A program made the position numbers and the translations under genes. Shown here in pieces: positions 35,948 through 51,885 of a stretch of DNA of 64,000 nt. Source of the stretch: Longimicrobiales bacterium (GTDB lineage Bacteria; Gemmatimonadota; Gemmatimonadetes; Longimicrobiales; Gaopeijiaceae); the NCBI GenBank assembly GCA_041690395.1, contig JAWLHJ010000003.1:1-64000 (forward strand), written 5' to 3'. The notes beneath the pieces are model-generated. The model made no database searches, was not told where the DNA came from, and saw nothing but the letters and a program-made list of their open reading frames with translations. Position 1 is the first letter of the stretch; every line of letters begins with the position of its first letter.

Positions 35948-37212
35948 CACGGGCTGGGCGTTTCGCCGTGCTCCTGGCCGGGCTCGCTCTCCTGGGCGGC
36001 GCCCGGGCCGCCCCCGCTCCGGGTCAGACCCCCGCGCCTCCCTCGGCCGGCGGTGAGCCAGGGTCGGAGCTCCGCGTCTGGCTGATCACGATCGGACCCG
36101 GCGACGCCATCTGGGAGCGCTTCGGGCACAACGCGATCCGTCTGCTCGACACGAGTACCGGCTACGACGCGTCGTACAACTGGGGCATCTTCGATTTCCA
36201 GCAGGAGGATTTCATTCCGCGTTTCCTGCGCGGCGAGATGCTGTACATGATGGCGCCCTTCGCCAGCGAGCCCATGATCGACATGTACCGGGCGGCGGGA
36301 CGGGAGGTGATCGCCCAGGAGCTGGCGCTGACGCCCGCACAGAAGCTCGAGTTGCGCGACTTCGCGGAGCGGAACGCGCTGCCCGGAAACCGTGAGTACT
36401 TCTACGACTACTTCCTGGACAACTGCTCGACGCGGGTTCGCGACCTGCTGGACCGGGTACTGGGTGGCGCCCTTTTCGCGCGCTTCGGCACGGAGCCGAC
36501 GGGGACGTCTTACCGCTATCATACGCGCCGCCTCACCCAGCCCGACCGGCCACTGTACACGGGTATGGACATCCTGCTGGGCAGCCCCGGTGATCAGCCG
36601 ATCACCGTGTGGGCCGAGATGTTCCTGCCCATGACGGTCCGTGACGCCATCCGCGACTTCAGCGTGGACGACGGCGAGGGCGGCACCCGACCCCTCGTGC
36701 TGTCCGAAGAGCTCCTGGCCGAGGCGCGGGTCGCCGACGAGCCCGAACGGGCGCCGACCTGGTGGTACTGGTATCTGCTCGCCGGGCTGCTCGGCGGGGG
36801 GGCGTTCGCGTTCCTCGGGCGTCGGGCCGCGGGCGGCTCGGCACGGGCCCGCTGGGCGTTCGCCGGATTCGGGGGACTCTGGGGCGCCCTGGCGGGCATC
36901 GCCGGTCTCATCCTGGTCGCGGTCCTCTTCACGGACCACCAGTTCATGACGTGGAACGAGAACCTCTTCCTGCTCTCGCCCCTGTCGCTCGCTCTGGCTC
37001 CCCTCGTGCCCCTGGCCGCGATGCGTCCCTCGGTGCGGACGTGGGCCGTGCGCGTGGCGGGAGCCGTGGTGGCGCTCGCGGTGATCGGCCTGGTGATCGG
37101 CCTGCTGCCCTTCGCCGTCCAGCGGAACGCGTTCGAGATCGCCCTCTTCCTCCCGCTCCACGTCGGGCTGTGGCTGGGAGTCAGCGCACTGGGTTCTTCA
37201 GCGACCGGTTGA
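35944..37212 (+). CDS. DUF4105 / Lnb-like membrane protein (putative lipoprotein N-acyltransferase)
   Basis: FGHNAIR, YNWGIFDF, YFYDYFLDNCSTRVRD, then 4-5 C-terminal TMs; TTG start overlaps the upstream stop. Confidence 0.7.
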   Translation: MTRAGRFAVLLAGLALLGGARAAPAPGQTPAPPSAGGEPGSELRVWLITIGPGDAIWERFGHNAIRLLDTSTGYDASYNWGIFDFQQEDFIPRFLRGEMLYMMAPFASEPMIDMYRAAGREVIAQELALTPAQKLELRDFAERNALPGNREYFYDYFLDNCSTRVRDLLDRVLGGALFARFGTEPTGTSYRYHTRRLTQPDRPLYTGMDILLGSPGDQPITVWAEMFLPMTVRDAIRDFSVDDGEGGTRPLVLSEELLAEARVADEPERAPTWWYWYLLAGLLGGGAFAFLGRRAAGGSARARWAFAGFGGLWGALAGIAGLILVAVLFTDHQFMTWNENLFLLSPLSLALAPLVPLAAMRPSVRTWAVRVAGAVVALAVIGLVIGLLPFAVQRNAFEIALFLPLHVGLWLGVSALGSSATG

Positions 37213-37971
37213 GGGTGCGGGCCGATACGCCGTCCGGACGAGCCAGAGGACGTCGACGGCGAAGGAGTACGCGAGCAGCGTGAGCGCGAGACCGCATGCG
37301 CCGGCCACCAGCGACGGGGGGACCACCGGCGCGAGGGCCACGAGAAGGGCCGCCACCTGCACGACGCAGATCGCCTTGCGGCGGAAGCTCGGAGGCAGAT
37401 CTCCCGTCAGCGGCGTCCAGAGCCACCCGGCCAGGACGAACAGGTAGCGAACGAGTCCGATCCAGACGACCCAGAAGCCGAGCGGGGTGCTGGTCCACAC
37501 GAGCGCGGCGAGCACGAGGATCAGGAACGCGTCGAGCTCCATGTCGAAGCGGGCGCCGAAACGGGTCTCCGAGGCCGTCCGCCGCGCCACCGCGCCGTCC
37601 ACACCATCGAGTGCGAGCGCCACGAGTGCGAGCGCCACCGCGAGCCATGCGAGGGACCCTAGCGCGCTTCCGGGGGTCACCAGCAGAGCGGCGACGGGTA
37701 GCACCAGCGTGGCGCGCAACAAGGTGACGCGATTCGCCCAGCCGAGCCCGGGTGGCGGCAAGCGTCGGGGAGCGCCGGCAACGACGAGGGCGCTCAGCGC
37801 TGCGTATCCGAGAAGCACCGTCCACACGTACACGTCCGGGAGGTCGTGCCAGCGGGCGATGGCCACGGCGGCGGCGGCCGCAGGGACGGCCGCGACGGCG
37901 AGGTCACGGAAGCGGAATGGCCCGTCGGGACGCGTGGGAGCGGAGTGAGCGGATGGGGGCGGGGTACTCAA
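37198..37971 (-). CDS. CDP-alcohol phosphatidyltransferase family protein
   Basis: ANRVTLLR and signature DGVDGAVARR...FGARFDMELD; multi-TM. Start uncertain (TTG 37971). Confidence 0.88.
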   Translation of the reverse strand: MSTPPPSAHSAPTRPDGPFRFRDLAVAAVPAAAAAVAIARWHDLPDVYVWTVLLGYAALSALVVAGAPRRLPPPGLGWANRVTLLRATLVLPVAALLVTPGSALGSLAWLAVALALVALALDGVDGAVARRTASETRFGARFDMELDAFLILVLAALVWTSTPLGFWVVWIGLVRYLFVLAGWLWTPLTGDLPPSFRRKAICVVQVAALLVALAPVVPPSLVAGACGLALTLLAYSFAVDVLWLVRTAYRPAPSTGR

Positions 37972-37996
37972 GGCCTGCGACGATGATTCGAGGACG

Positions 37997-38989
37997 ATGA
38001 CGGAAACGATCCATACCCGGCAATTCTGGATACGGTCGCCCGGGCAGGGCGCGGTCGAGGACCGAGCCATCGCGCCGCCGGGTGCGGGGGAGCTCCTCGT
38101 GGAAGCCTCCTACTCCGGCATCAGCCGCGGCACGGAGGCCCTCGTGTTCAACGGGGCCGTGCCCGAGTCCCAACACGATGCCATGCGTGCGCCCTTCCAG
38201 GAGGGCTCGTTCCCCGGGCCCGTGAAATACGGCTACAGCAGCGTCGGGAGGGTCGCGCGCGCGGCCGACGCCCCCGAGCTCGAGGGACGCTCCGTCTTCT
38301 GCCTGTTTCCGCACCAGGACCGCTACGTCGTCCCGGTGGACGCCGTCGTGCCGTTGCCCGAGGGACTCCCGGAGGGGCGCGCGGTGCTCGGCGCGAACAT
38401 GGAGACGGCGCTCAACGTGGTATGGGACGCGGGGGTCGGACCGGGCGACCGTGCGCTGGTCGTCGGCGGCGGCGTGGTCGGCCTGCTCGTCGCCTGGATC
38501 GCCCGGGGGATCCCGGGGAGCGATGTCCTGATCGTCGACGTGGATCCGTCGCGGGCGGAGGTGGCCGAGGCGCTGGGCGTCTCCTTCGCCGGCTCCGTGC
38601 CCGCGGGCTTCGACGCCGACGTGGTCGTGCACGCCAGCGGCTCGCCGGAAGGAGCCGCCGCGGCTCTTGGCGGGGCGGGTGTCGAGGGGCGGGTCGTCGA
38701 GGCGAGCTGGTTCGGCGACCGGAGCGTGGGCCTGCCGCTCGGCGAGGCGTTCCACGCCCGCAGGATCACGCTTCGGAGCAGCCAGGTCGGGCGGATTCCG
38801 CCGGAGCGGGCGCCGCGCTGGACCCACCGCCGCCGGATCGAGAAGGCATTGGAGCTGCTGCGCGCTCCGGTGCTCGACCGGCTCGTGACCGGAGAGAGCC
38901 CGTTCGACGAGCTTCCAGACACCCTCCGTCGGCTCAGCGACGACCCGGCGGGAGCCCTCTGCCACCGCATCCGATATCGCCCGGGCTGA
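37997..38989 (+). CDS. MDR-superfamily (zinc-binding alcohol dehydrogenase-like) oxidoreductase
   Basis: SGISRGTE, KYGYSSVG, PHQ, NMETALN, Rossmann GGGVVG, SSQVG. Confidence 0.85.
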   Translation: MTETIHTRQFWIRSPGQGAVEDRAIAPPGAGELLVEASYSGISRGTEALVFNGAVPESQHDAMRAPFQEGSFPGPVKYGYSSVGRVARAADAPELEGRSVFCLFPHQDRYVVPVDAVVPLPEGLPEGRAVLGANMETALNVVWDAGVGPGDRALVVGGGVVGLLVAWIARGIPGSDVLIVDVDPSRAEVAEALGVSFAGSVPAGFDADVVVHASGSPEGAAAALGGAGVEGRVVEASWFGDRSVGLPLGEAFHARRITLRSSQVGRIPPERAPRWTHRRRIEKALELLRAPVLDRLVTGESPFDELPDTLRRLSDDPAGALCHRIRYRPG

Positions 38990-39030
38990 GTGTCCGGGAC
39001 CTGTTTACCCTCCCCACTCGAGGAAGACCA

Positions 39031-39429
39031 GTGTATAGCCTGACAGTCCGAGACCACTTCATGATCGCCCACAGCTTCGCGGGCGAGATCTTCGGCCCGG
39101 CCCAGCGCCTCCACGGCGCCACCTATGTCGTGGACGCGTCCTTCCGACGCGGCGATCTCGACGCGGACGGCCTCGTGGTCGACATCGGGAGGGCCCGGGA
39201 GGTGCTGCGCGAAATCCTCAGCGAGCTCGATTACCGCAACCTCGACGAGGTCGAAGCGTTCGAGGGCGAGAACACGACCACCGAGTTCCTGGCTCGCGAG
39301 GTCTTCGACCGGATCGCGAGAGCCCTGCGGGATGGAGCGATGGGCCCGGGTGGGCGTGGCGTCCAGACCGTGGAGGTGACCCTCAAGGAGTCGCACATCG
39401 CCTGGGCGAGCTACGAGGGCGCGGTGTGA
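39031..39429 (+). CDS. 6-pyruvoyl-tetrahydropterin synthase / QueD-like T-fold protein (atypical)
   Basis: RDHFMIAHSF, FGPAQRLHGATY, LDYRNLD, NTTTEFLA, ESHIAWA; GAGGAAG before the GTG start. Confidence 0.88.
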   Translation: MYSLTVRDHFMIAHSFAGEIFGPAQRLHGATYVVDASFRRGDLDADGLVVDIGRAREVLREILSELDYRNLDEVEAFEGENTTTEFLAREVFDRIARALRDGAMGPGGRGVQTVEVTLKESHIAWASYEGAV

Positions 39430-40526
39430 CCTCACGGCGTATCCACTTCGTGGTCCCCGGAGCCCTCGACCAGCGGACCGGCGGGTATCTCTACGACGCC
39501 CGCATGGTGGCCGAGATGAGGGCCGTCGGTCGGGATGTCGTCGTGCACGAGCTCGACGGAGCCTTTCCGGCCGCGGACGAGGTGGCGCGTGGAAGCATGG
39601 GGGCGGCGCTGGAGCGGGTCGGCGACGACGAGCTGGTCGTCGTGGACGGCCTCGCCGGCGGCGGACTCCCGGAGGAGCTGGGCCGCCACGCTCGCCGCGT
39701 CCGGCTGGTGGGGCTCGTCCACCACCCGCTCGCCGACGAAACGGGGCTGTCCGAGGCGGAGGCGGCCCGCCTGGCGGCGTCCGAGCGGTCGGCCCTGGCG
39801 GTGTGCCGCGGGGTCGTGGTCACCAGCCGCTTCACCGCCCGGAGACTCGGCGCCTACGGGGTGGCGGCGCGGCGCATCCGGGTGGCCGTCCCGGGGACCC
39901 GTCCCGCTGCGCCCGCGTCGGGCCCCGAGGCCGGAGCCCCGCCGCGGCTTCTGTGCGTGGGCTCCCTGACGCGGAGGAAGGGACATCTGGTCCTGGTCGA
40001 GGCGCTGGCCACGGTCGCGGAGCTGGATTGGAACTGCTCGCTGGCGGGCAGCGAGACGCTCGACCCGGATCATGCGCGTGAGGTGCATCGCGCCGTCACC
40101 GAACACGGGTTGGAGGACCGGGTGTCCTTCCTCGGAGAGCTCGACGAGCCCTCCCTCGACGACGCCTACGCGGGGGCGAGTCTGTTCGTCCTGGCGTCGT
40201 ACTACGAGGGGTACGGCATGGCCCTCACTGAAGCGATCGCACGGGGGCTGCCGGTGCTCAGCACTACGGGCGGAGCGATCCCGTACACGGTGCCCGCGGA
40301 GGCGGGCGTGCTCGTCGAGCCTGGCGACCCGGGGGCACTCGCCCGAGCGCTCCGCGGCCTTCTGGTCGAGCCGGATGGCACGCTAGCCACGCTTCGGGAG
40401 GGGGCCCTCCGTGTGGCGGCCGACCTCCCCGACTGGCTGGCCGCCGGGGCTACATTCCTCTCGGCGGTCGAGGAGGCCGGCCACGGAGTCCCTCTCGCCG
40501 TTTCCGGGACGGGCACGCCGTCATGA
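39426..40526 (+). CDS. Glycosyltransferase family 4
   Basis: TGGYLYD, HHPL, RRKG, EX7E motif YEGYGMALTE. Confidence 0.9.
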   Translation: MTSRRIHFVVPGALDQRTGGYLYDARMVAEMRAVGRDVVVHELDGAFPAADEVARGSMGAALERVGDDELVVVDGLAGGGLPEELGRHARRVRLVGLVHHPLADETGLSEAEAARLAASERSALAVCRGVVVTSRFTARRLGAYGVAARRIRVAVPGTRPAAPASGPEAGAPPRLLCVGSLTRRKGHLVLVEALATVAELDWNCSLAGSETLDPDHAREVHRAVTEHGLEDRVSFLGELDEPSLDDAYAGASLFVLASYYEGYGMALTEAIARGLPVLSTTGGAIPYTVPAEAGVLVEPGDPGALARALRGLLVEPDGTLATLREGALRVAADLPDWLAAGATFLSAVEEAGHGVPLAVSGTGTPS

Positions 40527-41353
40527 GCGACGCTCCCGAACGCCGAGACGCGTTTTCCGCCGGCTGGCTCGCGCTGCGGGAGCCCGTCGACCACCGGACG
40601 CGCGCGGAAGCGTTGCTCGCGCCTCTGGCGACGGAGTGGCGGAGGCGGGGGTGGAGACGCGTAGTCGACCTGGGCTCCGGGACCGGATCGAACGCCCGCT
40701 ACCTGGCGCCACGCCTGCCGGGTCCCCAGCGGTGGGTGCTCGTCGACCACGACGCGGACCTGCTCGAGGGGGCCACCGTTCCGTCGTCGGTCGACGACGT
40801 GCGGCGGATCGTGGGCGATCTCGCCGCGGAGGGGCTCGAGGCCGTCCATGAAGCCGATCTGGTCACCGGTTCCGCTCTCCTGGATCTCGTGTCCGGGGCG
40901 TGGCTGGAGCAGCTTGTCGACGCCTGCCTGTCCGCGGGGGCGGGTGCGCTGTTCACCACCATCTACGACGGCACGGTGCATTGGAGCGACGAGCGCCCGG
41001 ACGACGCACGGGTGAAGGAGTTGGTGAACGCTCATCAGGCCCGAGACAAGGGCCTCGGTGGCGCACTCGGCCCGAGGGCGGCTCGCGCGGCTCGTGACCG
41101 GTTCGAGGTCGCGGGCTACCGGACCTGGCTGACGCCGAGCCCGTGGAGCCTCGGTACGGGCGACGCACAGTTGGCGCGCCTGCTAGTCGAAGGTTGGGTC
41201 GATGCGGCGGTCGAGCAGAGCCCCGCCGACGCGGATCGACTCAGGGCGTGGGGCCGTGCGAGGTGCGCGGACGTGGACGGTGGAGTCGCCCGGGTCGTCG
41301 TGGGACATCTGGACCTGCTCGCCCTCCCTCCGGCGGAGCACGAGGACCGGTGA
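40523..41353 (+). CDS. Class I SAM-dependent methyltransferase-like protein
   Basis: WLALREPVD, VDLGSGTGSN, SALLDLVS, NAHQ, GHLDL. Confidence 0.82.
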   Translation: MSDAPERRDAFSAGWLALREPVDHRTRAEALLAPLATEWRRRGWRRVVDLGSGTGSNARYLAPRLPGPQRWVLVDHDADLLEGATVPSSVDDVRRIVGDLAAEGLEAVHEADLVTGSALLDLVSGAWLEQLVDACLSAGAGALFTTIYDGTVHWSDERPDDARVKELVNAHQARDKGLGGALGPRAARAARDRFEVAGYRTWLTPSPWSLGTGDAQLARLLVEGWVDAAVEQSPADADRLRAWGRARCADVDGGVARVVVGHLDLLALPPAEHEDR

Positions 41354-42342
41354 AGCGCCGGGCGCGCCGCTGGCTCCGGGGCCTCGCGGGACCCATCATT
41401 CTCCTGGGTGTCGCCCTGACGGTCGACGTCCGAGCGGTGTCGGAGCGCCTCGCCGCCCTCGAGGCGCCCTGGGTGCTAGCCGCGCTTGCGGTCGGCGTCG
41501 GGCAGACGCTCCTCTCCGCCTGGCGCTGGAGGTACACCGCCGGCCGCCTCGGACTCACGATCCCATTTGCGCTGGCGCTCCGCGAGTACTACCGCGCGAT
41601 CTTCCTGAATCAGGTGCTGCCCGGCGGCGTCCTGGGCGACGCCGACCGCGCCTGGCGCCATTCGGGACGAGCTCCCGAGGCGCGCGGGCCGGCGGTTCGA
41701 GCGGTGGTCCTGGAGCGGCTCTCGGGCCAGGTGGTGATGGCCGCGGTGGCGTCGATCTCCTTCGGCTTCATCGCGCTGCGCGCCGGAACCGGGGCCCTCG
41801 GTTGGTGGGTCGCGTCGCTGGGCGTGGCCGCCGTTGCCGGCGTCGCCGTGGCGGTATCGGTCCGAGCGCCGCGCAGCTCCTCGCCCGCTTCGGTGACGGC
41901 CGCCCTCAGACGTGACGCCCGGGCCGCGCTCTTCTCCGGTGAGGCCGTGTACGTCCAACTCGCGACCTCGACGGTCATCATCGCATCGTACGTCGCGGCC
42001 TACCTGCTCGCGGCGCGGGCGGTGGGCGTCGAGACGCCCCTCGTCGCGGTGGCGCCTCTGGTCGCACCGGTCCTGCTGGCGATGCTGCTTCCCGTCTCGG
42101 TCGGGGGGTGGGGCGTGCGTGAGTCCGCCGCGGCCGCGATCTGGAGCGTCGCGGGCCTGGGCGCCTCGGACGGCGTGGCGATCTCCGTCGCGTACGGCCT
42201 GATTGTGCTCGTCGGCACGGTGCCGGGAGGCTACGCGCTCCTGTTCGGTGGAACACCCGTCGCGGCCGAAGCGGTCGAGGGGCTGCCGGAGCCCGCCCGT
42301 AGGTCCAGGTCGAAGAGGATGTCGGCGCCCAGCGCGAAGTGA
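41350..42342 (+). CDS. Lysylphosphatidylglycerol synthase TM-domain (UPF0104, flippase-like) protein
   Basis: AWRW, FLNQVLPGGVLGD, VVLERLSG, LPVSVGGWGVRE; multi-TM. Confidence 0.85.
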   Translation: MKRRARRWLRGLAGPIILLGVALTVDVRAVSERLAALEAPWVLAALAVGVGQTLLSAWRWRYTAGRLGLTIPFALALREYYRAIFLNQVLPGGVLGDADRAWRHSGRAPEARGPAVRAVVLERLSGQVVMAAVASISFGFIALRAGTGALGWWVASLGVAAVAGVAVAVSVRAPRSSSPASVTAALRRDARAALFSGEAVYVQLATSTVIIASYVAAYLLAARAVGVETPLVAVAPLVAPVLLAMLLPVSVGGWGVRESAAAAIWSVAGLGASDGVAISVAYGLIVLVGTVPGGYALLFGGTPVAAEAVEGLPEPARRSRSKRMSAPSAK

Positions 42343-43136
42343 CGGCAAGCGGGCCGGAGCGCGGCGTCGAGCTCGTCGATGACCGGCAGGCTCAGCCCCT
42401 GGCGCCCGGATCCGATGATCATGGGCGCGACCGTGACGTGCAGCCGATCGAGCGCGCCGGCCTCCAGGAAGCGGGATACGGTGATGCCACCGCCTTCGAC
42501 AAGGATCCGCCGGTAGCCACGCCCGCGCAGCAGCGCAATGAGGGCTCCAGGAGGTACGGACCCGGCGCGCCCACGCTCTGGCGGCGCGATGACCTCCACG
42601 TGGCCGGGTAGACCCGCCTCCGGCGTACCGTCCCGGATCCAGAGCGTGGGCGCGTCGGCGTCGGTGAAGAGCGGCCCTTCCGGCGGGACGCGCCCGTTCG
42701 GATCGAGCACGATCCTGGTCGGATGCTCTCCTTCGACGAGGCGCACCGTCAGGCGCGGGGCGTCGGAGACGGCAGTCCCCGCGCCGACGATCACGGCGTC
42801 GACGAGGGCGCGCAGGCGGTGGAGTCTCACGATGTCCTCCGGGCCGGTCACGTAGTGGGACCGACCGGACTCCGTGGCCACCCGTCCGTCGAGGCTCTGC
42901 CCGATCTGGCCCACGACGTAGTCCGGGCGCGCCGCCAGCGGCAGATAGAGGTCCAGGATCGCTCGGGCCTCCGGGCCAGGAGGAGGCTGGGTGTGCCACC
43001 CCCCTTCGTCGTCGAGCACGAGGAGGTGGCCGGAGGCGTCGCGCACGCGCGCGGGCGGCGCCGACCCGTCCGACACGGCGCCGGCCACCGCGCGCACCAG
43101 CGACCAGGCCGCGGCCGCGTCGAGTGAGGCGTTCAC
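42231..43136 (-). CDS. RibD C-terminal (pyrimidine reductase/DHFR-like) domain protein, no deaminase domain
   Basis: GQSLDGRVAT, HRLRALVDAVIVGAGT, PRLTVR, LVEGGG, APMIIG. Confidence 0.88.
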   Translation of the reverse strand: MNASLDAAAAWSLVRAVAGAVSDGSAPPARVRDASGHLLVLDDEGGWHTQPPPGPEARAILDLYLPLAARPDYVVGQIGQSLDGRVATESGRSHYVTGPEDIVRLHRLRALVDAVIVGAGTAVSDAPRLTVRLVEGEHPTRIVLDPNGRVPPEGPLFTDADAPTLWIRDGTPEAGLPGHVEVIAPPERGRAGSVPPGALIALLRGRGYRRILVEGGGITVSRFLEAGALDRLHVTVAPMIIGSGRQGLSLPVIDELDAALRPACRHFALGADILFDLDLRAGSGSPSTASAATGVPPNRSA

Positions 43137-43954
43137 GACCGGTCCGTCAGGCGATCCAGCGGGAAACGGGCCGCGTCGGCGAGCACGCGCGCGAGGTACG
43201 CGCCGTATCCTTCGACGAGGCGGGCGCCCATCTCCTTCGTGGCCAGGTGCGCGTTGCCGGTCACGCCGTCGGGGTTGAGATCCTGCGCGGTCCAAGCGAA
43301 CGCGGCGGCTCCCTCGGGCAGCAGGACGTCGAGGGTCTCCTCGAGCTTCGCGCCGAGCGACGGGAAGTCCCGAACGGTCTCCTTCCGCACCAGATCGGGA
43401 CGGAGGTGCATCATCATGGCCGTCTCGACCGCACCGCCGTGGAGCCCGTGACGCCATTCGGCTTCCGGCAGCTCGACGCCGTCCGGCCGGGGAAACCGGA
43501 AGACGTGGGCCTTCACCACCAGGAGCCCGTGATCCGTCCGCGCCCGGAGCGCGGCCCCGTCGACGACATGCTTGTTGCCCCCGTGCGCGTTCAGGATCAC
43601 CAGCCGGTGGATCCCCTCGGCCGCGACCGCGGCGGCCAGCGAGCCGAGTACGCGCCCGAGGGTCTCCGCGTCCAGCGACAGGGTGCCCCCGAGCCCCACG
43701 TGCTCCTCGCTCGAGCCGAGGGAGAGGTGCGGCAGGACGACGACGGGCACCTTGGCCGCCGTGGACTCCAGGGCCCGCTCCAGGATGCCTGCCGCGATCA
43801 GGAGGTCGGTCGACACCGGGAGGTGCGGCCCGTGCTGCTCGATCGCGCCGAGGGGCAGGACGGCGACCGGATCGTGTCCGGCGGCGGCCGCGAGCTCCGG
43901 GCGGGTCGCGGTCTCCCAGGAGAGCGGGAAGACGGGGGCGGGCGCTCGGGTCAT
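43133..43954 (-). CDS. Creatininase-family amidohydrolase (FAPy deformylase-like)
   Basis: LPLGAIEQHGPHLPVSTD, SEEH, NAHGGN, HGGAVET. Confidence 0.9.
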   Translation of the reverse strand: MTRAPAPVFPLSWETATRPELAAAAGHDPVAVLPLGAIEQHGPHLPVSTDLLIAAGILERALESTAAKVPVVVLPHLSLGSSEEHVGLGGTLSLDAETLGRVLGSLAAAVAAEGIHRLVILNAHGGNKHVVDGAALRARTDHGLLVVKAHVFRFPRPDGVELPEAEWRHGLHGGAVETAMMMHLRPDLVRKETVRDFPSLGAKLEETLDVLLPEGAAAFAWTAQDLNPDGVTGNAHLATKEMGARLVEGYGAYLARVLADAARFPLDRLTDRS

Positions 43955-44700
43955 GGGACGGACTCCTCGATCAAGCGGGCGTACAGGTCGCCGAACGGGA
44001 GATCGTCCGCGCCTCCTTGGAGCCACGCGCGCGCCTCACCGGCGGTGAGCCATCCGTCGAAGACGAAGTTGCGGTCCTCTCCGGCCACGGCATTGTACTC
44101 GTAACGCCCCAGCGTCTCCAGCCGTGCGACGCACGCCTCGGCCACCTCGAGCCCTCCCCGGACGAACTCCACCGAGAGCGCCGACACGGCCCGGCTGAGG
44201 CCCTCGAGCGCTTCGGCCTCGTAGCCCTCGATGTCCAGCTTGCAGAAATCCGGGAGGCCGAAACGGTCCACGAGCGCGTCCAGCGTCGTCATGGGGACCT
44301 CGATCTCGTCCTCCCAGCGCACGCCCTCGAACCCCGGATTGCGCTCGGGCATCCGGTCGCGCCACAGCCGTGAGACCGTCGATACGGTGGGGGTGCGCCG
44401 ACTCACCGCCAGGCGGGCGGTCCCCTCCTTCGGGCCGACGGCCTCCTCGACGATCTCGACGCCCGAGCGGCGCCCCACCAGCCGGCGGAGCCACGTGGCG
44501 ACCCGCGGCTGCGGCTCGAGCGCGATCACCCGGGCTCCGAGGGCCGAGAACGCCGCGGTTCGGTCGCCCAGGTGGGCGCCGACGTCGAACACGAGGGAGC
44601 CCCGGCCGACGAACGGCCGGTACAGGCGGCGGAGGGCCGGCTGTCTCCCCGGGCGCCAGTAGACGAGGAGGGAGCGCAGGAGCCCGAAGATCTCACCCAC
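43951..44700 (-). CDS. FkbM-family methyltransferase
   Basis: FDVGAHLG, ALEPQP, TTLDAL, KLDIEGYE. Confidence 0.88.
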   Translation of the reverse strand: MGEIFGLLRSLLVYWRPGRQPALRRLYRPFVGRGSLVFDVGAHLGDRTAAFSALGARVIALEPQPRVATWLRRLVGRRSGVEIVEEAVGPKEGTARLAVSRRTPTVSTVSRLWRDRMPERNPGFEGVRWEDEIEVPMTTLDALVDRFGLPDFCKLDIEGYEAEALEGLSRAVSALSVEFVRGGLEVAEACVARLETLGRYEYNAVAGEDRNFVFDGWLTAGEARAWLQGGADDLPFGDLYARLIEESVP

Positions 44701-46393
44701 CGGGACCGGCCTGCGCGAGGTCCTTGGGTCCGCTGAAGGTCGGCACGAACCAGGGCCGGAAGCGGTCCATGCGAGGGGCATCTCCCTCTGGGTCCGGGAA
44801 CGCCCCGGGCACGAAGCCCCACTCGAGGAACGGCGCCACGAGGTCCGGGTCACCGCTGACGACGTGCACGGGGACGGTCCGTGGCGCGCCGTCCCCGGTC
44901 ACCAGCGGCGCGGGCTGGTGATCGCCGAGAATGATCAGCAGCATGTCCTCGCCGACGTAGCGCTCGGCGTAGGACGTCGCCGAGTGCACGGCGTAGTCGA
45001 TGGACAGCGCGAAGTGCTCCCGCACGCGGTCGGCGTTCCGCCAGAGGTCCTCGGGGCGCTCACCGGCATCGCGCCAGGGCTCGAACACGGCGCCGTTTCC
45101 GATGCCTTCCCAGTCTTCGAGCACCGGCAGGATGGGGGTCCACGGCGCGTGGCTGCTGATCAGCCCCAGCTCCGCGAAGAGCGGACGCTCGTCGTCGCGC
45201 CCGCGGATGGTGTGCTCGAGGAACGACCAGGTGAACTGGTCCGGCATGGTCACCCAGTTCAGCGGGGGGCCGGCATACCCGATGGCCTCGAAGTCGTAGA
45301 TCTCGTCGTAGCCGAACCGCTCACCCTCGGGCCAGGCGAGCGTGATGGCCGGCATCAATGCCGCCGTGCGGTATCCCGCGGCGCGGAAGTCGTCGACGAG
45401 CGTCTGGCGGCGGCTCGCGAGCAGGAGGTCGTAGCGCATCTGGTTGTGGAGCCAGAGGCCGCTCAGCACGGAGCCGTGGCCGAGCCAGGACTGCCCGCCC
45501 TGGCTCGGCGCCACCATGCTGCCGCTCGCGAGCGTCAGTCCCGCTTCGGCCATGCGACGCTCCATCTCCTCGAGTCGCGGCCGCAGGACGGATGCGTAGC
45601 GGGGATCGTCCAACACCACGCTCCCGTACGACTCGACGAACGCGAGCACGACGTCCCGGCCGCCGAGTCGGTCGAACAGGCCCGGGAGCTCCGCGTAGCT
45701 GTCGGTCGTCGCCGAGAGCTCGGCCTCGAAGGCCTCTCGCTCCTCATTGAGCGCCGACAGGAAGCGGGATTGCTCCAGCACGAGACGGACCCCCGGGAAC
45801 CCGAGGCCGCCCGCTCCGCCCGCGGCACGCGCTCCGAACATCATCATACCGGTCACCACGACCGCGATCACGGCATTCCGCCGGCTCCATAGAATGGGGC
45901 GGACGCCGCGCGGCGGGGCCAGCAGGTGGCCGAGGACCGCCACGGTGGCGAGGACGGCGCTCACTGCGAGCACCCCGGCGAGAGCCGCCGCCACCCCTCC
46001 CAACGTTCCCGTCAGGAGGTTGAAGACGGCGCTCAGGAGCTGGACGTCGAGATACAGGTTGAGCGGGCGGGACAGGCTCATGCGGGTCGAGGCGTCGCCG
46101 AGACCGATCAGCCCGGTCGCAACGACCAGCGTGGCGGCGAGCAGGGCGGCCGCCAGGCTCCACCAGGCACGGGGAAGCGCGGCGAACACGAGGGCGAGGA
46201 GCCAGGCCTCGACCGCGATCCAATGGAACGGAACCATGCCGGGGGCGCCCCATTGCGGGGCGAGCAGCACGGCATTGACAACCAGAAACGCCAGGACGAG
46301 GCTCAGGAGTCTTCCGGACGCGGTCGACGGCCACGAGGCCAGCGCCTTCGCGACGGAGGCCGGTCTCCCGACGGTCGCCGAATCGGAGCTCAT
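44693..46393 (-). CDS. Membrane-anchored alkaline-phosphatase-superfamily (sulfatase/LtaS/OpgB-like) protein
   Basis: About 5 N-terminal TMs, then FVESYG, GQSWLGH, SSHAPW, GDHQP. Confidence 0.72.
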   Translation of the reverse strand: MSSDSATVGRPASVAKALASWPSTASGRLLSLVLAFLVVNAVLLAPQWGAPGMVPFHWIAVEAWLLALVFAALPRAWWSLAAALLAATLVVATGLIGLGDASTRMSLSRPLNLYLDVQLLSAVFNLLTGTLGGVAAALAGVLAVSAVLATVAVLGHLLAPPRGVRPILWSRRNAVIAVVVTGMMMFGARAAGGAGGLGFPGVRLVLEQSRFLSALNEEREAFEAELSATTDSYAELPGLFDRLGGRDVVLAFVESYGSVVLDDPRYASVLRPRLEEMERRMAEAGLTLASGSMVAPSQGGQSWLGHGSVLSGLWLHNQMRYDLLLASRRQTLVDDFRAAGYRTAALMPAITLAWPEGERFGYDEIYDFEAIGYAGPPLNWVTMPDQFTWSFLEHTIRGRDDERPLFAELGLISSHAPWTPILPVLEDWEGIGNGAVFEPWRDAGERPEDLWRNADRVREHFALSIDYAVHSATSYAERYVGEDMLLIILGDHQPAPLVTGDGAPRTVPVHVVSGDPDLVAPFLEWGFVPGAFPDPEGDAPRMDRFRPWFVPTFSGPKDLAQAGPGG

Positions 46394-46429
46394 GGTCGTT
46401 CGTGCCGGTCCACGGAGTTCGAGGTCATC

Positions 46430-48127
46430 ATGTCGTTTCGTCTGCCCGCCGCACTGATCGCCCTCGTCACGGGAATCCTCGTCGCGCTGTGGATATCGCG
46501 GGCCCCGACGCTACCGCCCGGAGACCGCGGGGCCAACCCCGAGGTCACAGAGGGAACTCCCGGCGCCACCGCACCCGGCTCCTCGGCGCCCCCGGCTCCC
46601 GCGGGACCCGCCACCGGCTCCGCGGAACTGCCGACCTGGGAGGTCGCACCCGGGTCGATCGAAGACGATCTCACCCGGATCGCCCGGGACCTCGCCCGCT
46701 CCGAGTACCGCCCGCCGGACGCCGCCGTTCCCCCGGCGCTCCTGGGTCTGGACTTCGACGGCTACCGCCGGATCCGCTTCCGACCCGAGCAGGCGATCTG
46801 GCGGGGCGTCACGGACTACGAGCTGCAGCTCTTTCACCTGGGCACTTCTCTGTACGACCAGCCGGTGAGCGTGCACCTGGTGGAGGACGACTCCGTCCGG
46901 CGCCTCGAGTACGACCCGGCCCTGTTCGCCTTCGAGGGGGCCGCGACGTCGCTGGCCGACCTGGCCCCCGGCGCCGTGCCCGGCTTCGCCGGCTTCCGCG
47001 TCCACTACCCGCTCAACGATCCCGACACCCACGACGAGGTCGCGGCGTTCCTGGGCGCCTCGTATTTCCGAGTGCTCGGCTCGGGGCAGGAGTACGGGCT
47101 TTCGGCCCGCGGCCTGGCGGTCGACCCCGCGGTCGAGGGTCCGGAGGAGTTTCCCGACTTCCGCGCGTTCTGGATCGAGCGGCCCGACGCGGCGGGGAGT
47201 CCAATCGTGATCCACGCGCTCCTCGACGGTCCGTCCGTTTCGGGGGCGTTCCGCTTCGAGCTCGGTCCCGGGGACCCGACCGAGGTGCTCGTCGACGCGC
47301 GCCTGTTCGCTCGACGCGACGTCCGGAAGCTCGGGGTGGCGCCGCTGAGCAGCATGTTCCTGCACGCTCCCGGGCACGGCCCGTCGCACGACGACTTCCG
47401 TCCCCGCGTCCACGACTCCGACGGCCTCCAGACCAAGACGGGGAAGGGGGAGTGGATCTGGCGTCCGCTCGGCAATGGACCCGGGCTCCACGTCACGTCG
47501 CTCAGGGACGAGGCCCCGGCAGGCTTCGGACTCCTCCAGCGCGCACGGGACTTCGAGGACTACCTCGACCTCGAGGCGCGGTACCATCGCCGCCCGGGAT
47601 ACTGGATCGAGGTGCTAGGCGGCGATTGGGGGGCGGGAGGCGTCGAGCTGCTGGAGATTCCCTCCGCGTCGGAGTTCAACGACAACGTCGCTGCGTACTG
47701 GGTGCCCGACCGGCCGTTCCGCGCAGGTGACGAGCGGCGCTTCCGTTATCGCCTGGTGACGGTGGGGGGCGTACCGCCCGAGATGGACGTGGCACGCGTC
47801 GTGCGTACGGTGGTGTCTTGGGATGCGCTCCCCGGTGAGGCGAATCCGCCGCCACGAAGCCGGCGCCGTTTCGTCGTCGACTTCCGGGGAGGGCGGCTTT
47901 CCGATCCCGAGGTGGTAGACGACCTTCGGGTGGATCTTTCGGTGTCACGCGGAGCCGTGGAGGAGGTCATGATCGTGCCTCTCCCGGGTAACAGTGGCCG
48001 GAGGGTGACGTTCGCCCTCGATCCCCAGGGAGATGCACCGGCCGACATGCGCCTCAACCTCGTCGCGGGCGATGAGCCCGTGAGCGAGACGTGGAGCTAC
48101 GTGTGGTACCCAGGAAGAATCGACTGA
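46430..48127 (+). CDS. opgG: Periplasmic glucan biosynthesis protein OpgG/OpgD (MdoG family)
   Basis: YRRIRF, FLGASYFR, YGLSARGLA, EEFPDF, APLSSMF, VHDSDGL, FGLLQRAR, SETWSY. Confidence 0.9.
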   Translation: MSFRLPAALIALVTGILVALWISRAPTLPPGDRGANPEVTEGTPGATAPGSSAPPAPAGPATGSAELPTWEVAPGSIEDDLTRIARDLARSEYRPPDAAVPPALLGLDFDGYRRIRFRPEQAIWRGVTDYELQLFHLGTSLYDQPVSVHLVEDDSVRRLEYDPALFAFEGAATSLADLAPGAVPGFAGFRVHYPLNDPDTHDEVAAFLGASYFRVLGSGQEYGLSARGLAVDPAVEGPEEFPDFRAFWIERPDAAGSPIVIHALLDGPSVSGAFRFELGPGDPTEVLVDARLFARRDVRKLGVAPLSSMFLHAPGHGPSHDDFRPRVHDSDGLQTKTGKGEWIWRPLGNGPGLHVTSLRDEAPAGFGLLQRARDFEDYLDLEARYHRRPGYWIEVLGGDWGAGGVELLEIPSASEFNDNVAAYWVPDRPFRAGDERRFRYRLVTVGGVPPEMDVARVVRTVVSWDALPGEANPPPRSRRRFVVDFRGGRLSDPEVVDDLRVDLSVSRGAVEEVMIVPLPGNSGRRVTFALDPQGDAPADMRLNLVAGDEPVSETWSYVWYPGRID

Positions 48128-48128
48128 C

Positions 48129-51071
48129 TTGATCGCTACGGCTCAATTACCTATCCGAAGCTCGCCCCCTGCCGCGCGGCTCGATACGCCGTGGCTCGGG
48201 CTGCGCCGTGCCCTGTTTTTCGCTCTCGTCCTCGCCACCACGGTGTACGGCGTGTCGATGATGGCCGCGTTGGTGTCGGGTGGAGGCACGACCCGGCTCG
48301 AGCTGCTGATCCTCGTTTTGTTCGCGCCCACGTTCGCGTGGATCTCCGTCGCATTCTGGAATGCCGTGGTGGGGTTCATCCTCCGGGCGTTCGGACGCGA
48401 CCCGCTGACGCTCGAGCGCATCGACGCCCCGGGTGGCCCGGCCCGGTTGGCGCCGCTCAGTTCGAGAACGGCGCTGGTCGTGCCGGCCCGGAACGAAGAC
48501 GCCTACGCGGTCGTTCGGCGAATCGAGGCGATGTTGGGGTCCCTCGAGAGGGCAGGTCATGCCGGCGCCTTCGACGTGCACCTCCTGAGCGACACCGACG
48601 ATCCGGAGCGGATCCCGGCGGAAGATGGGGCGTGGGCGGGTCTGGCCGGGCGCTACTCGGGCGCGGCCGGGCTCCATTACCGACGCCGAGCGCACAACGA
48701 AGGTCGGAAAGCCGGCAACATCGCGGAGTTCCTCGGCCGCGCGGGCGCGGGGTACGAGTACATGGTGGTGTTGGACGCCGACTCCGTCATGTCGGCCGAC
48801 ACCCTCGTCCGGCTCGTGCGTACGATGGACGCGAACCCGACGGCCGGCCTGGTGCAGACGGTTCCGCTTCCGGGCCCGCAGACGACGCGCTTCGGGCGCT
48901 TCGTCGAGCTTGCCGCCGGCCTGTACGGACCGATGCTCGCGGCCGGGCAGAGCTTCTGGCAAGGCGACGCCGCCAACTACTGGGGGCACAACGCGATCGT
49001 GCGTGTCGAGCCCTTCGTGCGGCACTGTCGGCTGCCGGTGCTGTCCGGCTCGCCGCCCCTCGGCGGTGAGATCCTGTCGCACGACTTCGTGGAGGCCGCA
49101 TTGCTGCGTCGGGCCGGTTGGGGGGTATACCTCCTGGCCGGGGCCGGAGGGAGCTGGGAGGACGTCCCCGCGAACCTGATCGACTACGCGCGGCGGGACC
49201 GCCGTTGGTCCCAGGGAAGCCTGCAACACCTGAAGCTGCTCGCGCTCGGGGGCCTTCACCCCATCAGCCGGCTGCACTTCCTGCTGGGCGCCATGGGATA
49301 TGTGTCGTCCCTCCTGTGGCTCCTGCTTCTGTTGGCGAGCACGGCGTACGTGGCCGGCGTCGCGCCGCTCGCGGATCCCGTGCTGGACGGGGTCGCGGGC
49401 ATGGGCTCGTGGACCCTCCTCCAGCCTTTACCCTCGCTGCTGGCGGTGACGGCGGCGATCCTCTTTCTGCCCAAGGGACTCGGGTTGCTGCTCGCGCTCC
49501 GGCAGCGGGAGCGGTACGGGGGGGCGGCGCGGTTGATCGGTGCCGGTGTCGCGGAAGCAGGCTTCGCGGTCGTGGTGGCGCCGATCATGATGATGTTCCA
49601 CGCGAAGTTCGTGTTGGAAGTCATGGTAGGACATTCGGTTGCCTGGACGACGCAGCTCCGTGACGGCACGTCGGTGCCGTGGGGCGATGCGACCCGGGCG
49701 GTCGGATGGATCGGCGCCGGGGGACTCCTCTGGGCCGCGGGAACGTGGTCCCTGAGTCCTCTGTTCTTCGCGTGGATGGCCCCGATTTTCATCGGGCTGC
49801 TCGCCGCGATTCCTCTCGTCCGATGGACCTCTCGTCCGTCGGTCGGTGTTTTCGACTCCGGTCCGATGCAAGACCGGGTTCCATTTTCTCCGGTATCCGG
49901 GACCGCCGTAGAGCGGGGAGGTTCGGTGAACGATATGTACGAGGCAGAGCGTGGGCTCTTCGAGCTGAGACGGCGTCGGGCGCTGCTCGTCACGCACGCG
50001 GCGAACGGCGACGGTACGGCGGGGGGCGACGCGCTGGTCGCGTCCGCCGAAGGATTGGGTGACGAGACCTTGGCGTCCCTGCGCCGCCTCGCCGATGGGC
50101 CGCTCCACCTGGTCGTCACGCCGCACCGGGCCCGTGCCCTCGGCATCCAACTCAGCCCCGGCCCGCTGGCGTTGCGGCTCCCGGCCGACGCCGGTCCGGG
50201 TGACGTGCTCCACCTGTGCAGCGAGCGCGGATCGACTCCGCCACGCGGTATGACCGTTCGACCGGCCACGGCGGCCGAGGCGCAGGGTCTGGCGTTGGCC
50301 CGGCTCGCCCAGCTCCTCCCGGCTGTGGTGGCGGGAAGTGTCTCGTCGACCCCGCGTGCGGAGCTGACGGAGGTACTGGCCGCCCGCCGGATCCTGCAGG
50401 TCGACTCGAAGCGCATCCGTGCCGCGCTCGAAGCGCCGAGGATCTCCGTCTCGCAGGTCAGTGAAGCCCCGGTTCCGCTGCAGGATGCCGAGGACGCCCG
50501 CTTCGTCCTGTTCCGGGAGGATCATGCTCTCCTGGAGCACGTCGCGATCATGATCGGGCGTCGCGAAGCGTGGCCGGACCCGGTGCCGGTGCGGCTGCAC
50601 TCGGCGTGCCTCACGGGCGACCTGTTCGGGAGCCTGAAATGCGACTGCGGCGAGCAGCTTCGCGGGAGCCTTCGGCACTTCCAGGAGCAGGGGGGCGGCG
50701 TGCTGCTCTATCTCCAGCAGGAAGGGAGGGGCATCGGGCTCGGAAACAAGCTGCGGGCCTACTCGCTCCAGGACGGAGGACTCGACACGGTGGACGCGGA
50801 CTGCACGCTCGGCTTCGGACCGGACGAGCGGACCTACGACGCCGCTCTCGACATGCTCCACCAACTCGGGATCGAGCGCGTGCAGCTGCTCACGAACAAC
50901 CCGGACAAGCTGAGGGCCGTGGAGCGGGGCGGGATCCAGGTCATGGATCGCATGCCCCTCCACGGGACGCTCAACCGGTACAATCTCCCGTACGTGAAGG
51001 CGAAGGTGCAGCGCGCCGGCCACTGGCTGGGCGACATGCTCTCCGGCGTGTCGGGGAACGGAAGTAGTTGA
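48129..51071 (+). CDS. opgH: Glucans biosynthesis glucosyltransferase OpgH (MdoH) fused in frame to a RibA-type GTP cyclohydrolase II with a degenerate RibB-like linker domain
   Basis: OpgH motifs RKAGNI, VLDADS, YWGHNAI, LSHDFVEA, RDRRWSQG plus TMs; no stop before RibA motifs RLHSACLTGDLFGSLKCDCG, EGRGIG, TNNPDK. Confidence 0.88.
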   Translation: MIATAQLPIRSSPPAARLDTPWLGLRRALFFALVLATTVYGVSMMAALVSGGGTTRLELLILVLFAPTFAWISVAFWNAVVGFILRAFGRDPLTLERIDAPGGPARLAPLSSRTALVVPARNEDAYAVVRRIEAMLGSLERAGHAGAFDVHLLSDTDDPERIPAEDGAWAGLAGRYSGAAGLHYRRRAHNEGRKAGNIAEFLGRAGAGYEYMVVLDADSVMSADTLVRLVRTMDANPTAGLVQTVPLPGPQTTRFGRFVELAAGLYGPMLAAGQSFWQGDAANYWGHNAIVRVEPFVRHCRLPVLSGSPPLGGEILSHDFVEAALLRRAGWGVYLLAGAGGSWEDVPANLIDYARRDRRWSQGSLQHLKLLALGGLHPISRLHFLLGAMGYVSSLLWLLLLLASTAYVAGVAPLADPVLDGVAGMGSWTLLQPLPSLLAVTAAILFLPKGLGLLLALRQRERYGGAARLIGAGVAEAGFAVVVAPIMMMFHAKFVLEVMVGHSVAWTTQLRDGTSVPWGDATRAVGWIGAGGLLWAAGTWSLSPLFFAWMAPIFIGLLAAIPLVRWTSRPSVGVFDSGPMQDRVPFSPVSGTAVERGGSVNDMYEAERGLFELRRRRALLVTHAANGDGTAGGDALVASAEGLGDETLASLRRLADGPLHLVVTPHRARALGIQLSPGPLALRLPADAGPGDVLHLCSERGSTPPRGMTVRPATAAEAQGLALARLAQLLPAVVAGSVSSTPRAELTEVLAARRILQVDSKRIRAALEAPRISVSQVSEAPVPLQDAEDARFVLFREDHALLEHVAIMIGRREAWPDPVPVRLHSACLTGDLFGSLKCDCGEQLRGSLRHFQEQGGGVLLYLQQEGRGIGLGNKLRAYSLQDGGLDTVDADCTLGFGPDERTYDAALDMLHQLGIERVQLLTNNPDKLRAVERGGIQVMDRMPLHGTLNRYNLPYVKAKVQRAGHWLGDMLSGVSGNGSS
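49935..51071 (+). CDS. ribA: GTP cyclohydrolase II moiety (possible independent internal start)
   Basis: In-frame GTG 49926 / ATG 49935 preceded by GGGGAGG; Zn-binding C-X10-C-X-C and catalytic motifs intact. Confidence 0.7.
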   Translation: MYEAERGLFELRRRRALLVTHAANGDGTAGGDALVASAEGLGDETLASLRRLADGPLHLVVTPHRARALGIQLSPGPLALRLPADAGPGDVLHLCSERGSTPPRGMTVRPATAAEAQGLALARLAQLLPAVVAGSVSSTPRAELTEVLAARRILQVDSKRIRAALEAPRISVSQVSEAPVPLQDAEDARFVLFREDHALLEHVAIMIGRREAWPDPVPVRLHSACLTGDLFGSLKCDCGEQLRGSLRHFQEQGGGVLLYLQQEGRGIGLGNKLRAYSLQDGGLDTVDADCTLGFGPDERTYDAALDMLHQLGIERVQLLTNNPDKLRAVERGGIQVMDRMPLHGTLNRYNLPYVKAKVQRAGHWLGDMLSGVSGNGSS

Positions 51072-51090: not shown

Positions 51091-51573
51091 GTGGCGGCCC
51101 TGGCGATGGCCGCCTGCTCCGGTCCGCCTGAGGTCGAGCGCGATCCCGCTCCGCTCCTGCAGACCTCGGCGGTGCGGTACACGTTCGAGCGGCACGACTT
51201 CGGCTATTCGACGACGATTCCGTTCACCTACAGGAACGAGACCGACGTCGACGTGCTCGTGGACCACTGTGACGGCGACGTCCGCCCGCTCCTCCAGATC
51301 CGCCGCGGCGACCGGTGGGTCGACCAGTGGCACCCGTTCATGGACGGCTGCTCGAGCCCACCCCTCCGTATCGCCCCCGGCGAGGTCTACTCCGACACGT
51401 TACGCGTGATCGGGGCCCCGCCGGGATCGAACGTCACGCCGGCCTTCGTGTTCGAAGACGTGGAAGGCGTGTATCGTTTGTATTGGTTCCAGGCGCGCCT
51501 TTCCGACTCGGACTCGGTCGCCACCGCACTGCCGTGGCGCGTCTCGAACCCGTTCGTGATCGAGCTCCCTTGA
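51091..51573 (+). CDS. Hypothetical lipoprotein
   Basis: Lipobox-like MAAC; beta-rich with a Cys pair. Start uncertain. Confidence 0.6.
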   Translation: MAALAMAACSGPPEVERDPAPLLQTSAVRYTFERHDFGYSTTIPFTYRNETDVDVLVDHCDGDVRPLLQIRRGDRWVDQWHPFMDGCSSPPLRIAPGEVYSDTLRVIGAPPGSNVTPAFVFEDVEGVYRLYWFQARLSDSDSVATALPWRVSNPFVIELP

Positions 51574-51588
51574 CGACATCGGCCGCCC

Positions 51589-51786
51589 ATGCCTCCCAGC
51601 AGATTCGTCTCCTCGGACCGCCTCATGCGGATGACGGTCTTCTTGACGTCCGCCGTCGTCATCCTGGTCGGGCTCGACGTCGGGCTTCGTGCGCTCGGCT
51701 CCGGTCCCGCAGCGCGCCTGGTGCTCGTCGTAGCGTGGCTGGTGCTGCTCCCGGTGCTCGGATGGCGCGTCTGGAAGGGCCATTGA
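51589..51786 (+). CDS. Small hypothetical 2-TM membrane protein
   Basis: 65 aa with two hydrophobic segments. Confidence 0.5.
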   Translation: MPPSRFVSSDRLMRMTVFLTSAVVILVGLDVGLRALGSGPAARLVLVVAWLVLLPVLGWRVWKGH

Positions 51787-51811
51787 CCCCTCGGGCTCGC
51801 ACGAGCAGGTT
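51783..51811 (+). promoter_or_regulatory. Putative sigma-70 promoter of thrS
   Basis: TTGACC-N17-CAGGTT. Confidence 0.4.
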
Positions 51812-51885
51812 CCGGAGACCGCCCACATCCCACGCCAGGCGCGGCCCCGATAGTCCCGGGCGCCGCGCTTTTTCAACCCTGAGCC

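Follow-up and report, generated by a model that had tools for sequence, protein, structure and literature searches.

A PTPS-IV-type gene cluster linked to predicted OpgG/OpgH glucan synthesis in a Longimicrobiales bacterium

Comparison with described systems

The PTPS-IV proteins of COG0720 are recognized by an FGPAQ signature, and the gene of SCO6650 from Streptomyces coelicolor has a PF00925 neighbour, as described in PMC5445326. A non-flavin function is attributed to the spare RibA of S. coelicolor in PMC13151069, and PTPS-IV is assigned to F420 synthesis, as unpublished, in PMC5041015. The substituents of osmoregulated periplasmic glucans (OPGs) are reported to come from phospholipids, via OpgB (phosphoglycerol) and OpgE (phosphoethanolamine) (PMC3818809). 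We analyzed a cluster of 12 genes at positions 37198 to 51071 of a 64,000-nucleotide stretch of contig JAWLHJ010000003.1 from a Longimicrobiales bacterium (GCA_041690395.1), hereafter called the window, in which a PTPS-IV-type core stands together with opgG and with an opgH fused to ribA. The core is that of the known orphan PTPS-IV/SCO6650 cluster and not a first sighting, and the orphan pathway is real and widespread. The sequence comparisons gave good evidence for a periplasmic glycan as one destination of this pathway in Gram-negative carriers. The reading that we prefer, to which we give about an even chance, is that a group made from GTP, probably of the pterin type, reaches a periplasmic glucan via a phospholipid.

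The window PTPS (39031..39429, + strand; PF01242) matched the SCO6650 structure (PDB ID: 3D7J) with an E-value of 2.9e-48, and in the alignment it had the FGPAQ signature and lacked the CxxxHGH / ExxHGH motif. Together with its GTP cyclohydrolase II neighbour, these features bore out the original prediction, made from the DNA letters alone, that the core is of the SCO6650 type. The window differed from the SCO6650 neighbourhood by the addition of opgG, opgH, and the OpgH::RibA fusion. Its GTP cyclohydrolase II (RibA2) kept Tyr105, whereas SCO6655 presumably has Met at this position and stops at the formyl product. As in the E. coli OPG system, there were OpgG and OpgH homologues with catalytic residues and a membrane-anchored transferase of the alkaline-phosphatase fold. 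However, the window transferase was not an OpgB orthologue, the cluster had its own lipid synthase and a flippase-like gene and was tied to a GTP-opening pathway, and the OpgH was shorter and carried a cyclohydrolase. The transferase resembled LtaS, GacH, EptA, and BcsG in its predicted fold (Z 19-21), N-terminal transmembrane (TM) helices, and Glu/Ser/His/Asp-His active site, but its identity with them was 10-14% and its profile had no match among PDB sequences. The combination of pterin, sugar, and O-methyl chemistry proposed below resembles that of the cyanobacterial pteridine glycosides cyanopterin and tetrahydrobiopterin (BH4)-glucoside, with the methylated pterin glycosides as the precedent (PMC3546692). 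In the Chlamydia RibA + TrpF route, the RibA product is converted to dihydroneopterin phosphate via another enzyme (PMC4161248); GTP cyclohydrolase II is likewise the entry into pterins, but there was no TrpF-type isomerase in the window cluster. Both the cyanobacterial and the chlamydial products are soluble and involve no lipid or glucan step, unlike the route proposed for the window. A search of the open-access literature, with subscription journals outside its scope, gave no paper in which the product or the link to opgH is named.

Riboflavin synthase and lumazine synthase were absent from the 12 cluster genes; the genome search gave one of each, next to another RibA, at C3:480.5-482.9 kb. 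This housekeeping riboflavin operon, which also contained a second RibD, was approximately 430 kb from the cluster. The earlier claim that the cluster is not a normal riboflavin operon was thus correct, and a role as the sole riboflavin RibA was rejected: the cluster ribA is an accessory copy. Of the cluster genes, RibA and RibD had additional, housekeeping copies in the genome, and each of the others occurred once. Folate supply was disfavoured as the main role, since folE and a second PTPS were present on C6. F420 was rejected as the product, because the F420 ligase, the one cof gene searched for, had no match in this 98%-complete genome and the controls were positive in three archaea.

Fusion and linkage of RibA2 with predicted glucan synthesis

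A 980-aa frame without a stop (48129-51071, + strand) encoded an OpgH glucan synthase part (48129..49853; NF003958, 672 bits with a cut-off of 419; DADS, SHDF, and RDRRW motifs) and, in frame with it, RibA2 with an N-terminal extension (49926..51071; PF00925 at residues 778-943). Fusion was found in 10 of the 12 genomes, the window included, that had opgH just upstream of ribA2, and the remaining two (G001 and G031) had a stop between the genes. A protein-database search gave 407 matches from the best 7,991 candidates scored, and GT2 and GTP cyclohydrolase II domains occurred together in 100 of the best 120, which were examined. The 10 fused kin and the 100 database homologues ruled out an assembly artefact or a chance read-through. 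The DADS and RDxRW motifs were kept in all 100 fusions, Tyr105 in 99, and Arg128 in 98. An alignment to 2BZ0 indicated that the window RibA2 keeps the three zinc Cys, Tyr105, and Arg128, residues which we take to have their usual roles in GTP cyclohydrolase II. At the position of E. coli Glu53, Ala was present in the window RibA2 and in 100 of 100 fusions, and Ala or Ser in 44 of 45 cluster loci. A pairing of the creatininase with a Tyr-to-Met RibA was not observed, Tyr105 being present in all 45 loci. Contigs of relatives, known as contigs and not as transcripts, were found in one metatranscriptome run, and one of them crossed the opgH-ribA junction at approximately 88% identity. Separately, proteins of 650-790 aa (P0105, P0110-P0112, and P0114-P0120) combined GTP cyclohydrolase II and GTP cyclohydrolase I domains (PF00925 + PF01227) in one chain.

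The fusion contained a Shine-Dalgarno-like GGGAGG followed by GTG (49915..49928, + strand), a possible second start for free RibA2. GGGAGG or GGAAGG with GTG persisted at the junction in six of six fused genus members examined, and Met stood directly before the RibA2 start motif in 82 of the 84 fusions where the motif was found. The retention of these internal start signals suggested that free RibA2 may also be made beside the full fusion.

OpgG (46430..48127, + strand; PF04349, E 5e-168), a member of the beta-1,2-glucan-acting MdoG family, matched E. coli OpgG with an E-value of 2e-107 and kept the catalytic acid, an Asp at the D361N site (PMC10514313). The window OpgH had ordinary GT2 motifs and passed the MdoH cut-off, and OpgGH are predicted from these sequences to make periplasmic beta-1,2-glucan in this genome. 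In a set of 61 genomes drawn by kinship, RibA2 was found in 19 and OpgH in 17, and all 17 were among the 19. A head-to-head module of the transferase gene (- strand) and opgG-opgH (+ strand) was found in four Vreelandella, one Halomonas, one Wenzhouxiangella, two other gammaproteobacterial records, Thioalkalivibrio, and one acidobacterium. Whether the opgGH linkage might be peculiar to this genome had been raised at the outset; it recurred in kin, Gammaproteobacteria, and Acidobacteriota. In a FastTree phylogeny of OpgH (48 rows, two truncated rows excluded), the 27 cluster-linked rows of one clade (SH 99) included no unlinked row, five further linked rows stood elsewhere, and the starred branches forced at least five changes. 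OpgH stood beside cluster genes in four of the 17 sampled genomes having OpgH outside the main clade, with approximately 0.1 expected by chance (an estimate). In the reverse test, which started from OpgH, all 11 metagenome loci with an identity of at least 62% had cluster genes, and none of the 69 more distant OpgH loci did (none of 28 with at least 14 kb); absence of the cluster from the distant genomes may be enough to account for the latter. The idea that a cyclic beta-1,2-glucan synthase stands in where OpgH is missing was rejected, because PF10091 occurred without a consistent pattern in 19 of 44 genomes, including this one. A 2,826-aa frame with PF10091 (G000:C3:550048-550650) is likely a cyclic beta-1,2-glucan synthase, and its presence in a genome that also has opgGH suggested that two periplasmic glucans may be made.

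Behind ribA2 in Gemmatimonadota without OpgH was a six-gene cassette (L266:1938-10748; also L267, L268, L269, and L272-L278), which consisted of a GH2-like TIM barrel fused to GT2, an ABC exporter, a Pfam-less glycosyltransferase-like gene, a GT4, a PIG-L deacetylase, and a methyltransferase-like gene. From its gene content, this cassette is a candidate for an undescribed glycan synthesis and export system. A GH + GT2 layout is proposed for cyclic beta-glucan synthases in PMC10237404, and we infer that the GH2-GT2 protein makes a glucan. GH2-GT2 was found in G009 (twice), G111, G112, and G113, all without OpgH, and was absent from ten Gemmatimonadota with opgGH clusters. Among 50 PTPS-IV genomes, 28 had OpgH, 15 had GH2-GT2, none had both, and seven had neither; all 15 GH2-GT2 carriers were Acidobacteriota, so that the split between 28 and 15 is confounded by phylum. 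From one acidobacterial order, 80 genomes were evenly drawn with the centre left out. PTPS-IV was found in 14 of the 80, and 12 of these 14 had at least one of the two synthases (OpgH in five, four of them within 13 kb; GH2-GT2 in eight; both in one; neither in two). Among the 66 PTPS-IV negatives, OpgH was found in none of the 28 tested and GH2-GT2 in eight. Seven loci had the cassette next to the cluster and two had it next to a lone transferase gene; the 20 kb fetched from G113 around the cassette contained no cluster gene. In the flanks of 14 loci without opgGH, no other glycan synthase was found among the 55 open reading frames (ORFs) examined of the 109 listed; the GH2-GT2 cassette was located afterwards, in some cases further out. 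The idea that the glucan is the destination thus stood in that the opgGH link recurs widely, and had to be widened in that at least two glycan backbones, the OPG among them, occur with the pathway. G009 had two full clusters (C15:941-960 kb and C5:12-32 kb; L037, L041, L268, and L269) with differing orientation of the cassette, and one of the copies was near two copies of a 429-aa ORF, a possible mobile element.

Cluster gene content, the predicted transferase, and the proposed route

A GTDB scan with the PTPS found at least 591 relatives, of which the best 80 were kept (two of these loci duplicate kin genomes), and 56 of the 80 had full 10-kb flanks. The tblastn counts in these 56 loci are lower bounds, since the flanks cut several clusters. 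MDR, GT4, and the methyltransferase were each present in 56 of 56, RibD in 53, the CDP-alcohol transferase in 49, the sulfatase-like transferase gene in 37, FkbM and RibA2 in 36 each, and the creatininase in 35 (28 of them with RibA2). UPF0104 was present in 25, including 12 of the 15 with OpgH in the flank; OpgG and OpgH were found in 15 loci each. A Haloarcula locus had the CDP-alcohol transferase, MDR, PTPS, methyltransferase, and GT4, and an unrelated GTP cyclohydrolase IIa instead of RibA (HVO_1284 is listed as arfA in PMC8305020). This replacement suggested that all versions start from a ring-opened product of GTP. The gene set varied further in several loci. Two Rhodobacterales plasmid loci (L173 and L174) both had a PfkB/ribokinase-family gene, and one an inositol monophosphatase-family gene. 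Two Streptomyces plasmids (L131 and L176) carried PTPS-IV without the rest of the cluster, in the company of cupin, MBL-fold, and regulator genes, so that the enzyme also occurs in another gene context. GT4 and the methyltransferase shared one stop-free frame of approximately 640-770 codons, possibly as fusions, in L077, L084, L087, L096, L099, L120, and L128. Cytochrome b561 (17 fetched loci) and YceI (13), neither of which is among the 12 window genes, recurred in or beside the cluster (e.g. L039:4833-5447 and L129:203-826), some of these loci being from the same genome.

The membrane-anchored protein of the alkaline-phosphatase superfamily (44693..46393, - strand) had an N-terminal TM domain and an alkaline-phosphatase-fold domain, according to the model and TM prediction. 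Its AlphaFold model (pLDDT 79, 11 sequences) gave LtaP, LtaS, GacH, MCR-1, and EptC as the best folds (Z 20-21, root mean square deviation 3.5-4.2, 270-283 residues aligned), with true sulfatases at Z 18.6 or lower, a modest margin; with full-length MCR-1 it aligned over 428 residues. E254, S302, D385, H415, D491, and H492 were conserved in 61-65 of the 65 rows of an alignment from which six duplicates and two short rows were excluded. E254, S302, H415, D491, and H492 presumably correspond to active-site positions of LtaS, as judged by motifs rather than residue-level superposition. The protein is predicted, from this model and its conserved residues, to be a head-group transferase of the LtaS/EptA class (LtaS/EptA/BcsG type). 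The original prediction of an LtaS/OpgB-like membrane enzyme therefore held for the fold class and failed for OpgB orthology: OpgB (NF003000) matched neither the transferase nor anything else in the genome. The genome search with PF00884 tells little about further transferases, as it missed the window's own gene too.

A FastTree phylogeny of the transferase had two clades. Clade 1 (39 rows) included all 27 opg-labelled rows, L106, first labelled unlinked, having proved linked; clade 2 (26 rows) had no opg-labelled row, and several of its members stood beside the GH2-GT2 cassette. The transferase family was present in 44 of the 50 PTPS-IV genomes, and beside the CDP-alcohol transferase in 36 of the 37 full-flank loci having it. 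The CDP-alcohol transferase was itself fused to RibA in two proteins of unrelated records (P0106 and P0107). The lipid-relay step was in this way strengthened by the predicted transferase fold, the conserved active site, and the CDP-transferase::RibA fusions, and limited by the existence of lipid-free and glucan-free versions of the cluster. In Chromohalobacter, Salinicola, and Marinobacter, transferase genes were also found off-cluster with no opg or cluster gene adjoining.

From the observed genes, motifs, fusion, linkage, and predicted folds we infer a route in which every chemical step, the step order, and the glucan acceptor would be as follows. RibA2 would convert GTP to 2,5-diamino-6-ribosylamino-pyrimidinone 5'-phosphate, with the creatininase-family amidohydrolase (43133..43954, - strand; PF02633, E 9e-63) in an inferred ArfB-like role as a deformylating helper. 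The stand-alone RibD reductase domain (42231..43136, - strand; PF01872 only, without deaminase) would reduce the RibA2 product with retention of the 2-amino group, which argues for pterin-like rather than flavin chemistry. The MDR dehydrogenase (37997..38989, + strand; assigned by Pfam and a predicted model) would oxidize a ribityl hydroxyl, and oxidation at C2' would permit ring closure to dihydroneopterin phosphate; its model was closest to polyol and sugar-acid dehydrogenases, and it had Ser at the position of the catalytic-zinc Cys. The side chain would be reworked by PTPS-IV. The GT4 glycosyltransferase (39426..40526, + strand; Pfam) would then add a sugar, and the class I methyltransferase dependent on S-adenosylmethionine (40523..41353, + strand; PF13649 weak, atlas clusters of class I methyltransferases) and the FkbM-family methyltransferase (43951..44700, - strand; TIGR01444 above cut-off) would add methyl groups, to give a cyanopterin-like methylated pterin glycoside. 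Among the 58 PDB matches of the GT4 there was no close solved relative, and none was named as a pteridine glucosyltransferase (BGluT/PgtA), as judged by names and not by direct comparison.

The lipid steps would begin with the CDP-alcohol phosphotransferase (37198..37971, - strand; PF01066, E 2e-15), a protein of approximately 257 aa with approximately six predicted TM helices and, in a sequence check, the full DxxDGxxAR...GxxxDxxxD motif; its start is most likely TTG at 37971 rather than the ORF edge at 38070. This enzyme would join the GTP-derived alcohol and a phosphatidyl group to give phosphatidyl-X. No cytidylyltransferase was found among the 12 window genes by the Pfam scan, which bears only indirectly on CDP-diacylglycerol, as opposed to a soluble CDP-polyol, as the donor. 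The flippase-like UPF0104 / LPG_synthase_TM membrane protein (41350..42342, + strand; PF03706, E 8e-37) would move phosphatidyl-X across the membrane, and the LtaS/EptA-type enzyme would transfer phospho-X through Ser302 to the OpgH/OpgG glucan, in the manner of OpgB with glycerol and OpgE with ethanolamine. An unclosed pyrimidine may be the cargo instead of a pterin. A more specific version, that a phosphatidyl-(glycosyl, methyl)-pterin made with GTP cyclohydrolase I bypassed donates a redox-active, UV-absorbing pterin to the glucans of two unrelated synthases, with cytochrome b561 keeping the pterin reduced, is put forward tentatively as a possible elaboration. The relay design of lipid synthase, flippase, LtaS-type transferase, and glycan is known, and it is the cargo that would be new. 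The more specific version, if true, would yield the first phospholipid head group and glycan substituent to be derived from a nucleobase, and would give the orphan PTPS-IV pathway its product. Proof of the GTP-derived group on lipid and glucan would add a new class of phospholipid head group and of glucan substituent, together with a third way of making pterins from GTP. The glucan link shows where to look for the product, since periplasmic glucans are abundant and easily extracted, cultured hosts with the full set exist (Vreelandella), and a pterin is fluorescent after oxidation.

Several observations weigh against this relay. Neither the CDP-alcohol transferase nor the head-group transferase was present in the 22-28 kb searched at the Rhodobacterales plasmid loci L173 and L174 and at a Methylosinus locus. 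In the actinobacterial (Microbacterium) and haloarchaeal (Haloarcula) loci seen, the CDP-alcohol transferase was present and a glucan synthase absent, and such cells have no periplasm. The seven PTPS-IV genomes with neither synthase included two of the Wenzhouxiangella group that keep the transferase. G072 and G081 had opgH inside the cluster with no transferase match in genomes whose completeness was not given, as would be consistent with a link that bypasses the lipid relay. The kept internal start and the two unfused kin suggested that the fusion may merely couple expression. The GH2-GT2 cassette occurred without PTPS-IV in the eight order genomes counted above, and in the kin genome G018 without PTPS-IV or RibA2. 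Finally, OpgH is common in Proteobacteria; linked genes are co-inherited and kin are not independent, so that counts among kin overstate the association; moreover, all trees were made by FastTree only.

A first alternative is that the pathway ends in a membrane lipid derived from GTP, or in a glycoside of a pterin or pyrimidine that is free (in the periplasm). The transferase would then release this product or pass it to lipid A or another lipid, and the glucan genes would be clustered with it only through a shared response to envelope or osmotic stress. We regard this as somewhat unlikely. The glucan-free loci of Microbacterium and Haloarcula, the two plasmid loci free of lipid genes, and the seven genomes without either synthase all favour it, the recurrence of cytochrome b561 and YceI would suit a redox-active membrane product, and the lipid A modifiers EptA and MCR-1 scored equal to BcsG or GacH in the fold comparison. 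However, it leaves unexplained two unrelated glucan synthases in the same slot and 100 OpgH::RibA fusions, and the transferase stays beside the synthase even when apart from PTPS-IV (L147, L276, and L277).

An arrangement of two separate modules in one island, in which the transferase adds glycerol or ethanolamine phosphate to the glucan and the GTP genes feed F420, folate, or riboflavin, appears improbable. The transferase could stand in for OpgB, for which no recognizable gene was found in the genome, and PMC5041015 places PTPS-IV in F420 synthesis, as unpublished. Against this, the F420 ligase search of the genome was negative and the folate and riboflavin entry enzymes exist elsewhere. The near-constant company of the transferase with PTPS-IV (44 of 50) and with the CDP-alcohol transferase (36 of 37) also speaks against separate modules, and the CDP-transferase::RibA fusions connect lipid attachment with GTP opening. 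The least probable of the alternatives is a cytoplasmic link between the glucan and the GTP-derived group, in which OpgH, which is able to use a glucoside primer, would start its chain on the glycosylated product (free or lipid-bound) and the transferase would act later or elsewhere: RibA2 is indeed fused to OpgH itself, opgH lies in the clusters of the transferase-lacking G072 and G081, and in Methylosinus opgH is beside the core with opgG, the CDP-alcohol transferase, and the transferase not nearby, but it is the transferase gene that keeps a constant place beside opgG-opgH in the main clade, the window OpgH is ordinary in its motifs and MdoH score, and GT4 enzymes yield alpha-glycosides, a poor fit for a beta-glucan primer.

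Arrangement and surroundings of the cluster

All 12 genes were open frames with the predicted families in Pfam and NCBIfam scans, and the closest relatives among the matches listed carried the Gemmatimonadota label. The intergenic gaps ranged from -112 to +41 bp, with overlaps of 4 or 8 bp at six junctions. The genes were arranged in four strand blocks in the order -, +, -, +: the CDP-alcohol transferase (block 1), MDR, PTPS, GT4, methyltransferase, and UPF0104 (block 2), RibD reductase, creatininase, FkbM, and the sulfatase-like gene (block 3), and opgG and opgH::ribA (block 4). At the head-to-head junctions 37971/37997 and 46393/46430, the starts were separated by merely 25 and 36 bp, which is too little room for two separate promoters. 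These blocks and junctions indicated that the cluster is not one operon. The earlier description of 12 tightly packed contiguous genes was right about the families and the packing. The same gene set was found in kin and in other phyla, which argues that the gene arrangement is not due to chance.

Upstream, a frame at approximately 36000-37212 (+ strand) had Lnb-like lipoprotein N-acyltransferase domains, and its end overlapped the end of the CDP-alcohol transferase; this gene adjoined the cluster in the same genus only. Downstream, positions 51091-58848 contained a 160-aa ORF without a family, followed by apparent thrS, infC, rplT, pheS, and pheT, as read from the translations.

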